Positions 1-4,047 of a stretch of DNA of 24,558 nt are shown in pieces (position 1 is the first letter of the stretch; the number at the start of each line of letters is the position of its first letter). The translations under genes and the position numbers were made by a program. Origin of the DNA: a virus; UHGV virus genome UHGV-0105381; one strand, 5' to 3'. A model generated the notes under the pieces. The model was given only the letters and a program-made list of their open reading frames with translations, ran no database searches and was not told the DNA's origin.

Positions 1-8
1 GGGGCATA

Positions 9-49
9 ATTGGGGGCATTGCTGGTTCGATTGTAAATGTGCCCCCAAT
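9..49. repeat. 10-bp perfect inverted repeat ATTGGGGGCA (9-18) / TGCCCCCAAT (40-49) with 21-nt spacer, abutting the int start codon; candidate regulatory or recombination site
   Basis: Read directly from sequence; arms are exact reverse complements. Function not shown. A GGTTCGATT T-loop-like motif lies in the spacer but no tRNA stems are present. Confidence 0.6.
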
Positions 50-1336
50 ATGTCCAGAAATACCCTCAACAAATTAACAGACCGTCAGTGCAAAGCAGCT
101 AAGCCACGAGACAAAACTTATAAATTGTCTGATGGTGGTGGTCTTTATCTTGAAGTATCCCAGACCGGGTCGAAGTATTGGCGAATGAAGTATCGCCGCC
201 CATCAGATAAGAAAGAAGACAGACTTGCTTTTGGTGTATATCCAACCATTAGCTTACAAGACGCCAGAGAAAAACGAGACAACGCCAAAAAGTTGTTAGT
301 CAAGGGGATAGATCCCAAAGCAGAGCAAAGAGAAGCAAAAGCAGAAGAAAAAGGTGCATTCACTTTTGAGACAATAGGACGTCAATGGGTTGAAAGCCAC
401 CAGATGTGGAACGAAGCCCACCGAAAACGCGTACTTAGAAGCCTTGAAATGTATATTTTCCCTCACATTGGCACTTCGGATATTCGCAAACTGGAGGCGA
501 TGACAATTTTACCTTTGTTTAAGAAGGTAGATGACGCCGGGAAACACGATACAGCCAACCGACTTAAACAACGAGTTAAGGACATCATACATAGCGCCCG
601 TCTGAGCGGCATTAAGACAGAAATCATCACGAATGATCTCGATGTCCGGTTAATGCAATATGAAACTAAGCATCATGCCGCACTACATCCCAGAGATTTA
701 CCAGACTTTTTCACTCGATTGGGCAGCTTTAAAGGTAATCCTCTTACCCGCCTTGCCATTGAGCTAACCATGTTGACCTTTGTTCGTTCAAGCGAGTTAA
801 GGTTTGCCCGTTGGAAAGAGTTTGACCTTGATCGGGCTGAGTGGATTATCCCTAAAAAAAGAGAGCCTATCGATGGTGTGAGGTTTTCCACCCGTGGCAC
901 AAAGACGGGAAAAGACGAACATATCGTGCTTCTTAGCCGTCAGGCTGTTTCTATTGTAAAGCAGTTGAGAGAACTAAGCGGAAGCTACGATGTTGTGTTT
1001 CCGAATGAAAGAAACACCAAAGGCGTGATGAGTGAAAACACGGTAAACAAGGCATTACGCTTAATGGGCTATAACACGCAAGAGGACGTAACTGGACATG
1101 GATTCCGTGCCACAGCCTGTAGTTCCCTGATGGAGTCCGGTTTGTGGCAGGAGGACGCAGTAGAGCGCCAGATGAGCCACAAAGAATATAAAGACGTTAA
1201 AAGAGCCTACAAGCACAAGGCTGATTACTTAGAAGAGCGCAAACTAATGCTTCAATGGTGGGCAGATTATCTGGACGCCAATCGAGAAATACACATAAGC
1301 CCTTACGAGTTCGGAAGGAGAACACGCCGTGACTAA
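50..1336 (+). CDS. int: Tyrosine recombinase / integrase, P4-like type with N-terminal arm-binding domain
   Basis: 428-aa ORF; N-terminal region (KLTDRQCKAAKP...YKLSDGGGLYLEV...KYWRMKYR) typical of P4-family integrases; C-terminal HGFRAT (H-x-x-R box) followed by conserved Tyr region. Family assignment recalled, not searched. Confidence 0.9.
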   Translation: MSRNTLNKLTDRQCKAAKPRDKTYKLSDGGGLYLEVSQTGSKYWRMKYRRPSDKKEDRLAFGVYPTISLQDAREKRDNAKKLLVKGIDPKAEQREAKAEEKGAFTFETIGRQWVESHQMWNEAHRKRVLRSLEMYIFPHIGTSDIRKLEAMTILPLFKKVDDAGKHDTANRLKQRVKDIIHSARLSGIKTEIITNDLDVRLMQYETKHHAALHPRDLPDFFTRLGSFKGNPLTRLAIELTMLTFVRSSELRFARWKEFDLDRAEWIIPKKREPIDGVRFSTRGTKTGKDEHIVLLSRQAVSIVKQLRELSGSYDVVFPNERNTKGVMSENTVNKALRLMGYNTQEDVTGHGFRATACSSLMESGLWQEDAVERQMSHKEYKDVKRAYKHKADYLEERKLMLQWWADYLDANREIHISPYEFGRRTRRD

Positions 1337-2069
1337 GATGACAGGACTAGATGCGTTTTATAACGAGTCAGAAGATAAAATCTGGTTTGGTAATCTGATC
1401 AGCGAACTGGCAAGACTAAACAATGAAAATGAAAGAATGATAGCTGCCGCTATCTTAAGTAACTACAGATTGAGCAAGACTAAACCAGATACTTTAGGGG
1501 GGCTGGGCTTTTATCAGTTCGATTGGGTATCTGGTTTTACGACTAATGAAGACTTTGAAAAGCAGAGTGTGGAGTTTTTAGGTCTTCTGGCTATGGGGCA
1601 TGAATACAGGGAGAGCCCGATACCGGGGGAAGAAGGGACTTTCAACGTTAGGAAAGGAGAAGACTTTTTATATCACGATGATGAGGATGATTGGTATGGG
1701 TCTTACGATTCGTTTTATTTCAAGCGGTCCGAGCTTGTGAGCTTCTTCCCAGAACTGGAAGATCACAACATTGATGAACCGATAGCAGAGGAAACAGAAA
1801 GTGGGTCGCTCCCCAGTGACTGGCGCGGCAAAAACACCGCCTGGAAAATGATTGCTGGGCTGGCGATTGCTTTATATGAATCCAGCGAGGACGTTAGAAA
1901 GAATGGAAAGCTCAACCAGTCCGCGGTGTGCGAGAAAGCAGCAAACAACATCGCAAAGTACAGTGAAGAATACAATGATGCTGGCATGACCATGGATAAT
2001 CTAAGAACGCTTCTAAAAAAGACTTTGCAGCGGCACGCACCCAATTTTTTGGGAAAGATAACCAAGTAA
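1329..2069 (+). CDS. Hypothetical acidic protein, translationally coupled to int (alternative ATG start at 1338)
   Basis: 246-aa ORF; GTG at 1329 has AAGGAG about 8 nt upstream and overlaps the int stop (TAA 1334-1336). Asp/Glu-rich central region; no motif recognised. Confidence 0.55.
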   Translation: MTKMTGLDAFYNESEDKIWFGNLISELARLNNENERMIAAAILSNYRLSKTKPDTLGGLGFYQFDWVSGFTTNEDFEKQSVEFLGLLAMGHEYRESPIPGEEGTFNVRKGEDFLYHDDEDDWYGSYDSFYFKRSELVSFFPELEDHNIDEPIAEETESGSLPSDWRGKNTAWKMIAGLAIALYESSEDVRKNGKLNQSAVCEKAANNIAKYSEEYNDAGMTMDNLRTLLKKTLQRHAPNFLGKITK

Positions 2070-2225
2070 AATAATTGATGTTCCCAAATTAGCTGGAGAG
2101 ACGAAAACAAACGCCCAATTTGGGACAATTCCTTTCCCGAAAACTTTTTCTCCAAATTCACAGAAAACTTAAAAAAACAATGATTTACTATCTCACATAG
2201 TCAAGCAACGTATTACGAGGTAGAT

Positions 2226-2417
2226 ATGAAAAAGTCGCTGATTCGGCTATCTGAGGTTTTGAAACGCACTGGCTATAGCAAGGCGTGGGTATATGCTCTG
2301 ATGAGCCGAGGACAATTCCCCCAATCAGTCAAGATTGGTTCTCGCGCAATAGCTTTTATTGAAAGCGAGATCGATGACTGGATCGATCAACGTATAGCCG
2401 AATCGCGTAGCAACTAA
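2226..2417 (+). CDS. alpA: AlpA-family phage transcriptional regulator / excisionase-like DNA-binding protein
   Basis: 63-aa ORF with RLSEVLKRTGYSKAWVYALMSRGQFPQSVKIGSRAIAFIESEIDDWI, matching the AlpA (Phage_AlpA) pattern; GAGGT RBS 7 nt upstream. Confidence 0.85.
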   Translation: MKKSLIRLSEVLKRTGYSKAWVYALMSRGQFPQSVKIGSRAIAFIESEIDDWIDQRIAESRSN

Positions 2418-2465
2418 AGAACAGAAACAAACAGGATACAAACAATACGTTATTAGGTATTAAGA

Positions 2466-2704: not shown

Positions 2705-2738
2705 GTATTGCATTTTGGTACAACAGTAAGGGAATAAA

Positions 2739-2933
2739 ATGATTAATTACCTGACCGTTAAAGACGCAGCAGAATATCTTGGCGTCTGTCTGTCACGCTT
2801 CTATCAGTTAAAGCGATATATCCCAAGCTTTCCTCCCTATATAAATCAGACCATCAATGGACGCAAGCGCCGGGTGTGGCTTGCCTCCAGCCTTGATCAA
2901 TTTGCCGACAGATTTCTGGGGGGACGAAAATGA
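2739..2933 (+). CDS. Small helix-turn-helix DNA-binding protein (excisionase/MerR-like HTH)
   Basis: 64-aa ORF; LTVKDAAEYLGVCLSRFYQL resembles Xis-type HTH; AAGGGA RBS; stop overlaps next ORF start (ATGA). Confidence 0.55.
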   Translation: MINYLTVKDAAEYLGVCLSRFYQLKRYIPSFPPYINQTINGRKRRVWLASSLDQFADRFLGGRK

Positions 2934-3316
2934 GCACTCTTACACGCTCTCAGGTCGCCGCGAATATACGCGATAGCCTACTAAGTGGCAGGAAGCTTAC
3001 CCCAAAGGAGTTTGACGACATATTAAGGAAAGCCGGAAATCACGAACGTAGTCGCGTTTTAACGCTGTTACGCAACGATTGGGGAATTCCTGTTGAGCAG
3101 TTTAAAACAGGGGCGTATCACGTCACAGAACGCAATTTAGAAGCATACCACAGCGATAAAGACGAAACATTGAAGATCTGGAGGACGAACGCCAGATATG
3201 TAAAGACATTGCGTAAGGTAAACATAACGTTGTCGTTGTTGCGTGGGCTGGTGGGCAAAGTGCCTGAAGACACGCTTAGAACTGTTTACAAGGGTATTGA
3301 AACCAAATACCTGTGA
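2930..3316 (+). CDS. Hypothetical protein
   Basis: 128-aa ORF translationally coupled to the upstream HTH gene; no recognised motif. Confidence 0.5.
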   Translation: MSTLTRSQVAANIRDSLLSGRKLTPKEFDDILRKAGNHERSRVLTLLRNDWGIPVEQFKTGAYHVTERNLEAYHSDKDETLKIWRTNARYVKTLRKVNITLSLLRGLVGKVPEDTLRTVYKGIETKYL

Positions 3317-3328
3317 TTGACAAAGCAG

Positions 3329-3355
3329 AAAGCCGACTTTGCGAGAGTCGGCTTT
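3329..3355 (+). terminator. Hairpin AAAGCCGACT-ttgcgag-AGTCGGCTTT; possible terminator after the 2930-3316 gene
   Basis: 10-bp stem read from sequence; 3' arm ends in TTT but no long U-tract follows. Confidence 0.4.
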
Positions 3356-3384
3356 GAATCAATTGAAATATATGAACTTTACAC

Positions 3385-4047
3385 ATGGAATTATACGATA
3401 AAGACGCGAGTCTATCCACAAAATCACAAGCCGTAATCAATCACATCAATGGTCGCACATTAGCTTATGTGAAATCAGTTACGCACAAACGTAATGAATT
3501 AAAGGCGGAGAATAAACGACAATCATCAAAGGCTAACCACTGCATACCACCAGCCTGGACAAAGAGGAAATGGCGTACAATGAGGCGAGCTTTGTTTACT
3601 CTGGATGTCGAATCAACTAGTGGTATCCCCTACTCCTTTACCTTCAGACCCGTTAAGGGAACAACGCCAGAGAAATTCAACAAAGCGTTAAAGGCACTTA
3701 CCAGATGGTTGACTTCGAAAGGCAATCAGTGGGTTTACGTCATGGAGTGGGCTCGACACCAGTCAGAGCCGCATGTACACGCAATAATCATGGTGAACGA
3801 AAGAAGCATTAATGGGCAAGCTGGCAAAATTATCAGCAAATGGGTAACACTGGCAAACAATGCAATCCCATCAAATGTTCCTCCCCAGTGGGATCTAGAT
3901 TTGAAAGGTCAGCAATATTCAGAGCCTACAAAGTGTATAGGTAAACACATTGATTACATGGCAAAGCCCGAAATGAAGTGGTCAACAAAAACTGGCCACC
4001 GAGTTAGAGTTTTTCCAGTATCGATTTTCCGATTCGTTTGGGGGTAA
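3385..4047 (+). pseudogene. HUH-superfamily rolling-circle replication initiator (Rep), 3' end disrupted by IS insertion; native coding sequence ends near 3973
   Basis: Translation carries HUH motif PHVHAIIMV, a YxxK motif (DYMAKPE) and an upstream FTLD motif. From nt 3974 the ORF reads through the IS terminal inverted repeat (MKWSTKTG...), so the last ~24 codons are IS-derived. Confidence 0.55.

Follow-up and report, generated by a model that had tools for sequence, protein, structure and literature searches.

The stretch of DNA analysed here, UHGV virus genome UHGV-0105381 (24,558 nucleotides, hereafter the window), begins with integrase, alpA and rep genes and continues with virion genes of a P22-like phage. 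Positions 1-3973 are in all likelihood the left 4 kb of an 8-10 kb genomic island located at the tRNA gene argW, which was cut by the insertion sequence IS911 and joined, accidentally or by an assembly error, to unrelated P22-like genes. The intact island family combines a front end like that of PICMIs (phage-inducible chromosomal minimalist islands) with the backbone of a rolling-circle plasmid, and is a variant of known small integrative islands. As far as our searches show, the family is common in E. coli, and no description of it was found in a limited literature search. An earlier note on this DNA had recognised in the left arm a P4-type integrase, a 246-amino-acid (aa) protein, AlpA, a helix-turn-helix (HTH) protein and a rolling-circle Rep of the HUH (histidine-hydrophobic-histidine) class. 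All these genes, as well as the HUH and YxxK motifs of Rep, were confirmed by the list of open reading frames (ORFs) and by profile searches, and all the genes of 1-3973 are on the plus strand.

A search of 5,426 complete E. coli genomes revealed DNA resembling window 1-3975 in 550 of them, always in the chromosome, with at least 80% of this stretch present in 214. Window 1-3973 is 100% identical to positions 20001-23973 of locus L001 (loci and contigs are designated by L numbers), where the tRNA-Arg(CCT) gene argW occupies 19811-19885. In GMF054 (100% identical), 99-3165 and 2022H047, the island is located directly after the tRNA-Arg gene, downstream of yfdC, and is followed by csc or dsd genes of the chromosome; none of these three genomes has structural genes of a phage near it. 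The order of the intact island is P4-type integrase, 246-aa protein, AlpA, 63-aa ORF, HTH protein, 128-aa protein, 350-aa HUH Rep, variable cargo, resolvase and attR, with about 0.5-0.6 kb of conserved non-coding DNA between Rep and the strain-specific genes. The same gene order was found at the same tRNA-Arg(CCT) in Klebsiella pneumoniae and Erwinia sp. Leaf53.

The attachment (att) core GATTCCTGCAGGGGACACCA is the 3' end of the tRNA gene and recurs, with 2-4 extra bases, directly after the resolvase gene, forming in intact copies a direct repeat of 20-24 bp. The islands bounded by this repeat measure 8.1 kb (L001), 10.4 kb (L002) and 8.1 kb (L049, from Klebsiella). The attL core stops about 115 bp upstream of window position 1, and no copy of the core is present anywhere in the window, even when 3 mismatches are allowed. 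The att core that the earlier note had proposed to look for was therefore found as a repeat in intact islands, but not in the window. Since the window lacks an att site and its Rep is truncated, 1-3973 is a fragment and not an excisable unit, and the independent excision of these bases that had been considered is not supported. The left arm does stand as something other than P22 early genes: none of these (int/xis, erf, c2/cro, replication, nin) was found in 1-5527, and in the complete genomes examined the P4-integrase element occurs alone, with its own att repeats.

The match to intact islands ends after base 3973, at codon 196 of rep, where the right inverted repeat (IRR) of IS911 starts. 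This position had been taken as the end of the element, and both the truncation of Rep and the IS911 had been overlooked. The full-length Rep of intact copies has 350 aa (L002 23385-24437), whereas the rep gene of the window covers only codons 1-196 (3385-3973, plus strand). The reading frame continues within IS911 to 4047, and the resulting 220-aa ORF (3385-4047) is a chimera whose final 24 codons are supplied by the inverted repeat of IS911. IS911, a member of the IS3 family, occupies 3974-5222 with its IRR on the left and its left inverted repeat (IRL) on the right, and both orfA and orfB are present, on the minus strand. This element of about 1250 bp, with terminal inverted repeats starting TGAAGTGG, shares 98.2% identity with the IS911 annotated in phage Sf6, and the copies of the window, of the P22-like prophage L026 and of GMF054 are identical across 1249 bp.

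The two flanks of IS911 do not correspond to one insertion event. The left flank is AAA and the right flank is GCC, or TGA if read after a 9-bp stretch that repeats the tip of IRL in tandem (GCCACTTCA, 5223-5231), so there is no 3-bp target-site duplication. After the 9-bp copy, the sequence is identical to the intergenic region upstream of a 77-aa gene and terS of a P22-like prophage. The 9-bp copy is missing from the uninterrupted prophages L023 and L025, as well as from the right junction of the IS911-interrupted rep in L052, and it was probably left behind by an aberrant transposition. The part of the island that the window lacks was found at the other end of IS911, in the gut-metagenome contigs L052 and L053. 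Both contigs begin inside IS911, read IRL|AAA|CTAAGTT and continue through the absent half of rep, a gene for an HNH-domain protein, the resolvase gene and csc, with 7 mismatches in 10.4 kb relative to GMF054. The IRL|AAA junction indicates that IS911 was inserted simply into rep, duplicating AAA. Judged from these sequences, the right IS911 end of the window belongs to another IS911 insertion, in the prophage.

The chimeric 220-aa ORF is present in six contigs, four of which end inside the insertion sequence and two of which cross into terS: metaSPAdes NODE_168 (L006, 5x coverage) and a MEGAHIT contig of 331 kb (L022). The junction of truncated rep, IS911 and terS is in no complete E. coli genome, and none of these genomes carries IS911 at that position of rep. 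In GMF054 the argW and torS-torT loci have the same orientation and are separated by 1.4 Mb. The join could be an assembler path through identical IS911 copies, an IS911-mediated or Campbell-type insertion, or a large duplication. The second of these models, in which a phage genome carrying IS911 would have entered rep by IS911-mediated insertion or by Campbell-type recombination, agrees with all three junctions that were observed. Two rearrangements have been rejected: a single deletion from a tandem argW array, as the P22-like prophages at argW point their late genes toward the tRNA gene, opposite to the window, and a single inversion between argW and torS-torT, which would join the truncated rep to the lysis side and not to terS. 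In every model the adjacency of the island and the P22-like genes is an IS911 accident, and the two are not a functional unit.

The right part of the window (5232-24558, plus strand) is the late, virion region of a P22-like prophage, and it shares 99.97-100% identity with prophages that lie between torS and torT. Gene labels in this region are the Pfam labels on identical contigs. They comprise the 77-aa gene (5270-5503, minus strand), terS (5528-6055, plus strand, Terminase_2 3.5e-40), terL (6052-7467, plus), portal (7469-9667, plus), scaffold, coat (10670-11923) and head-completion and ejection proteins (all plus), an Arc-family gene (20326-20577, minus), tailspike (20713-23358, plus) and a family 2 glycosyltransferase (GT2; 23405-24520, minus). 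The structural module is uninterrupted from terS to tailspike, and the late region lacks int, immunity, replication, nin and lysis genes as well as regulatory genes and late activators. In the native arrangement of its relatives, lysis and nin genes are located upstream of terS. The 24 longest contigs with the exact tailspike all show torT beyond GT2 or stop short of torT, and lookups of GT2 and tailspike, with similar places collapsed, returned torT-adjacent or contig-end contexts only. The fusion of the left arm to a P22-like structural module, as noted earlier, is real in the sequence. It gives no information on the exploitation of a helper, because the two parts are joined via an IS911 with mismatched flanks and the structural module comes from a torS-torT prophage.

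IS911 is frequent in the P22-like prophages at torS-torT and causes deletions there. The torS-torT prophage of GMF054 (L004) is reduced to a truncated int, IS911 and then the region from the middle of gp7 onward. This IS911 likewise lacks a target duplication, which shows that deletions driven by IS911 took place on both sides. Other IS911 or ISEc52 sites in related P22-like prophages (L054 of strain 19KM2326N, L026, L028 and L005) are in the lysozyme gene, in the terS/terL region and upstream of terS, and one prophage has two copies. Merging with neighbours has also been observed at argW, where provirus predictions among the IMG/VR records (L035-L045) contain the island together with adjacent P22-like or lambdoid prophages. 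Some of these mergers are tandem arrays separated by a partial att core, and others are eroded, with Rad52-Rep (P0007) and Int-Rep (P0008) fusion proteins.

The right end of the window is the end of contig ERZ1755749 NODE_168. Both this contig (L006, the source of the window) and the unrelated L033 end less than 40 bp upstream of the GT2 start (window 24528-24558), GT2 is truncated in L030, and L034 has no GT2 gene call; something therefore disrupts the assembly or the sequence near this point. At 24536 the window reads T, in contrast to the G of every other locus. The tailspike and GT2 cassette (window 20500-24558) has a GC content of 35-43%, compared with about 50% in the rest of the late region, and is 98-100% identical between torS-torT and argW prophages. 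It behaves as a mobile module for host range or O-antigen modification.

The left arm starts with 49 bases of non-coding DNA from the left end of the argW island (1-49), the attL core being outside the window. The P4-type tyrosine integrase (428 aa, 50-1336) matches the Pfam families Arm-DNA-bind_3 (5e-29), Phage_int_M and Phage_integrase and the PHROGs family phrog_1 (3e-55). At the DNA level its gene is 66% identical to P4 int in a sensitive blastn search, and the protein shares 32% aa identity with IntS, the integrase of argW prophages. The gene of the acidic 246-aa protein (1329-2069, GTG start) overlaps int by 8 nucleotides (1329-1336). This protein has a pI of 4.72 and no match in Pfam, NCBIfam, PHROGs or PADLOC, and homologues of its gene were found in E. 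coli, Klebsiella and Erwinia only, in each case directly 3' of int. The AlpA-family small DNA-binding protein (63 aa, 2226-2417; PF05930, 1.7e-18) matches a PHROG annotated as excisionase and transcriptional regulator, and it is 32% identical to the excisionase TorI across 38 aa, so it is probably an excision factor or an activator. A second 63-aa ORF (2466-2657), taken from the ORF list, is annotated in RefSeq copies, and its position is conserved: the corresponding site in the islands of Klebsiella and Erwinia also holds an ORF. The first gene of the plasmid-type replication module encodes a 64-aa HTH protein of excisionase/MerR-like type (2739-2933; HTH_17, 2.2e-5; excisionase-type TIGR01764, 3.9e-4). 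It is overlapped by an accessory gene of the module (2930-3316) for a basic 128-aa protein, for which no family match was obtained in the same four databases. Scans of the window for tRNA genes and Rfam families found nothing.

The assignment of Rep to the HUH rolling-circle class is based on profiles, motifs and a predicted structure. Rep matches PF23343 (REP_ORF2-G2P) with 29.9 bits (cutoff 27.8), and its motifs H-V-H and Y-M-A-K correspond to residues 130-132 and 191-194. The family is small, with 28 clusters at E <=1e-3 among 1.84 billion representatives, and its members match PF23343. The residues E121, P129, H130, H132, W153, Q177, Y191 and K194 are invariant in 21 Rep sequences with 18-51% identity. 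The aligned members show motif I (uTLT), PHxH and GWxxYxxK, in the order of the Rep class. A first structural model obtained from 5 close sequences was unusable (predicted local distance difference test, pLDDT, of 40). The model from a 19-sequence alignment has a pLDDT of 75, above 85 over most of residues 60-230, and the fold matches of this predicted structure point to an HUH nuclease. Sequence searches against PDB gave no significant match, and the similarity to the MobA/VirD2 nuclease family PF03432 is weak and below the cutoff (E 0.003-0.005). In the window the cut falls two residues past the catalytic Y191-M-A-K194, so that the truncated Rep keeps motif I, the HUH motif and Y191-x-x-K194, and lacks the conserved C-terminal 154 aa (44%).

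A hairpin with a 10-bp stem (3329-3355) is located between the 128-aa gene and rep. It is conserved at the same place in the Klebsiella (L049) and Erwinia (L046) islands and in three Klebsiella plasmids (L018-L020), and changes in one arm of the stem are balanced by changes in the other (GCCGACT/AGTCGGC, GCCCGCT/AGCGGGC and ACCCGCT/AGCGGGT). It may be a terminator or attenuator, or the hairpin of a rolling-circle nick site. On the other side of the gene, ACGTCAAC repeats are present 3' of rep in intact copies; in L002, three (A)CGTCAAC copies and GC-rich palindromes are located at 24614-24845, within about 0.6 kb of conserved non-coding DNA. These copies and palindromes are candidate origin or iteron sequences.

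A tblastn search with the full Rep gave no match in 50,697 deposited phage records and detected distant relatives on small Klebsiella plasmids, which are cryptic, circular and 5.7-6 kb in size. The three plasmids inspected, CP073059 (5.7 kb), AP022186 (5.7 kb) and CP141860 (deposited as a 12.1 kb head-to-tail dimer), carry genes for a DNA-binding protein of 68 aa, a 126-aa protein whose gene overlaps the first, a Rep of about 370 aa and a resolvase, in an order that matches that of the island. Identities between plasmid and island proteins are 44% for the HTH protein, 40% for the 126-aa protein, 24% for Rep and 45% for the resolvase. On AP022186, the 68-aa protein is at the position matching that of the 64-aa HTH protein (44%), and the counterpart of the 128-aa protein (40%, 3e-32) is encoded just upstream of rep. 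Rep is the sole candidate replication gene on the three plasmids, and MOB-suite classified them as non-mobilizable. This shared order indicates that the right two-thirds of the island are a small-plasmid backbone; the left third (int, the 246-aa gene and alpA) is a putative integration module added to it. Larger Klebsiella replicons of about 109 kb (L055, plasmid CP145150, 108.6 kb) code for a protein of 291 aa with about 27% identity to the Rep of the island, carry phage-like recombination and exonuclease genes, and are possibly phage-plasmids.

The variable slot of the island differs among copies. One E. coli copy carries an HNH-domain protein, and another has a protein with a weak, below-cutoff domain match of HEPN/RES type. 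In Klebsiella (L049 11327-12766) the slot holds two small genes and an HNH protein that matches the PADLOC candidate defence PDC-M68A (8.6e-34) and HNH effectors of the type found in cyclic-oligonucleotide-based antiphage signalling systems (CBASS). Nested inverted repeats, GTCTCAATAGGGTT / AACCCTATTGAGAC, are located at L002 27792-27920, immediately before the start codon of the resolvase gene, and look like a putative res site.

From this gene content a life cycle of the intact island can be proposed. AlpA and the integrase, probably with the 246-aa protein, would excise the island between the 20-24 bp att repeats, and Rep would nick the origin and drive rolling-circle replication of the circle with the host helicase and polymerase. 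The resolvase would turn multimers back into monomers, and the integrase would put the island back at argW. Transfer from cell to cell would require outside help, from a phage or a conjugative element. The copy in the window cannot perform any of these steps: its Rep lacks the C-terminal 44%, and the cargo, the resolvase and attR are absent from the window.

Several observations weigh against the interpretation of the window as an accidental join, or against the proposed island biology. Two contigs, from different samples and assemblers, cross the insertion sequence identically, and the join may thus be physically real. The conserved hairpin could simply be a terminator, and a comparison of k-mers between the non-coding DNA after rep of the island and the Klebsiella plasmids revealed no convincing nick-site motif common to both. 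The cargo genes of the E. coli copies match no PADLOC model. An excised attP junction was not found in IMG/VR or in JGI metagenomes, collections that are a weak test. The steps of the life cycle are a proposal only, derived from sequence.

Concerning the way in which the intact island moves, it is unlikely, in our estimation, that the family is a minimalist satellite of the PICMI kind, in which alpA would be turned on by a helper phage, after which the island would be excised, replicated as rolling-circle concatemers and packaged by a headful phage, perhaps of the P22-like kind, with no capsid or terminase gene of the island involved; the window would then contain a dead copy of it. The layout of int, overlapping gene, alpA, small ORF, replication gene and variable slot does match that of PICMI115, the size of 8-10 kb is suitable, AlpA resembles the excisionase TorI, and the cargo slot differs by strain, with a defence-like HNH protein in Klebsiella. 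The island also shares argW with P22-like prophages and occurs in tandem with them; however, a common att site does not show helper dependence. The island has no primase, a mandatory PICMI marker, no packaging signal or gene was detected in it, and beyond int it has no DNA similarity to deposited phages. There is no virome or attP evidence, the matches in IMG/VR are apparently proviruses that were predicted in genomes, and the same backbone occurs as a free plasmid. Judged by the hallmark genes, the left arm is not the P4-like or PICI-like (phage-inducible chromosomal island) satellite suggested by the earlier note, since no primase-helicase, sid/psu/delta, terS-like, capsid-redirecting or packaging gene is present. 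A P22-like phage that carries int-alpA-Rep as its normal early region, which would have spoken against a satellite-like element, was not found: no phage DNA matched window 1-3967, and Rep was in none of the 50,697 phage records. It is quite unlikely that the islands form an undescribed family of minimalist Enterobacterales satellites, present in about 4-10% of complete E. coli genomes and in Klebsiella and Erwinia, with the window as a wrecked copy beside a wrecked candidate helper. If phage mobilisation were true, the interest of the island family would rise.

It is very unlikely that the intact island belongs to the integrative mobilizable elements (IMEs), with Rep acting as a relaxase at an origin of transfer (oriT) and a conjugative plasmid supplying the mating pore. 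The weak match of Rep to PF03432 points in this direction, HUH proteins of the Rep class act as relaxases in some IMEs and integrative and conjugative elements (ICEs), and the island has int and an excisionase-like gene without transfer genes of its own. Nevertheless, the order of the motifs (HUH and then Y) and the fold matches are those of the Rep class and not of the Mob class, the related plasmids are typed as non-mobilizable, no coupling protein or oriT was recognised in the island, and the 5.7 kb plasmids encode no candidate replication protein besides Rep. Finally, a single functional hybrid that spans all 24.5 kb, be it a capsid-forming satellite or a P22-like phage with an int-alpA-Rep front end, as hinted at by the earlier note, is hardly credible. 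In favour of such a hybrid, PICIs are known that form capsids and combine int and alpA with capsid genes of their own, the junction is identical in contigs of at least two samples (one of 331 kb) and the structural module is uninterrupted from terS to tailspike. Against it, Rep breaks off at codon 196 of its 350, the halves are separated by an IS911 that lacks a target duplication, the window has no att core and no lysis, regulatory or late-activator genes, each half occurs separately in near-identical form (the island at argW and the virion genes at torS-torT), the rest of the island was found next to the other IS911 end, and no phage record has this Rep.

A provirus call that starts with int-alpA-Rep and continues with P22-like virion genes is consequently not one element. 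The argW site collects islands and prophages in tandem, which IS911 and recombination then fuse and erode, and treating such windows as hybrid phages or as satellite-helper units is a mistake. The defective copy in the window shows nothing about the use of a helper. The intact island, with its PICMI-like integration front end, rolling-circle plasmid backbone and swappable cargo slot, is a testable candidate for an 'integrase-only' island whose transfer route is in question, a question raised in PMC10121019.

Among known systems, the PICMIs of Vibrionaceae have the most similar published layout: they contain int, a gene that overlaps int and is required for excision, then alpA, a small ORF, a replication gene and a defence hotspot, they replicate by the rolling-circle mechanism and are packaged as concatemers, and they are inserted next to fis, with a DUF3987/DUF5906 primase as a mandatory component (PMC10803314). 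The island shares with them the small size, the co-directional order of int, overlapping gene, alpA, small ORF, replication gene and variable cargo, and the lack of capsid or terminase genes. The 246-aa gene, with its 8-nucleotide overlap with int and alpA following at 2226, holds the place of iolg, to which it is likened by position only; iolg has a role in PICMI excision, and 13 distinct iolg/icg gene families have been reported (PMC10803314). The island differs from PICMIs in having an HUH Rep with two plasmid-type accessory genes instead of the DUF3987/DUF5906 primase, a resolvase, the argW site and hosts in the Enterobacterales (E. coli, Klebsiella and Erwinia).

The small Klebsiella plasmids resemble the island in the homologous order of HTH protein, protein of about 126 aa, Rep and resolvase (24-45% identity) and in the hairpin upstream of rep, but they are free circles without integrase, 246-aa gene, AlpA or att sites. 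P4-like satellites share the P4-type integrase, the insertion at a tRNA gene and a size of about 10 kb. In contrast to them, the island lacks the alpha primase-helicase, the sid/psu/delta/eps genes and any detectable similarity to the P2/P4 cos site. Only int matched when the intact island was compared by blastn with phages including the P4 genome, and no primase or helicase domain was found with Pfam, NCBIfam and PHROGs in the ORFs of the left arm or of intact islands. Gram-negative PICIs of the EcCICFT073 type also begin on the left with int and alpA and continue with a replication module; the island is smaller and lacks the pri-rep, terS-like, ppi, rpp and cpm genes. Genes for packaging or capsid redirection (terS-like, ppi, rpp, cpm) were absent among the ORFs of L001 and L002 scanned with Pfam, NCBIfam, PHROGs and PADLOC, and among the precomputed Pfam labels of L049 and L046.

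The CPS-53/KplE1 and Sf6-like prophages use the same argW site, have an integrase (IntS) 32% identical to that of the island and an excisionase (TorI) distantly similar to AlpA, and occur in tandem with the island. However, they are prophages or prophage remnants in which int and xis are located at the two opposite ends and the virion genes point toward the tRNA gene, whereas the island has no phage genes. The P22-like phages that carry IS911 (Sf6, SfII and SEN22) resemble the window in the presence of IS911 within a P22-like genome, and IS911-associated deletions are found in related prophages. In those phages IS911 is a simple passenger, whereas in the window the flanks of the insertion sequence come from two different elements.

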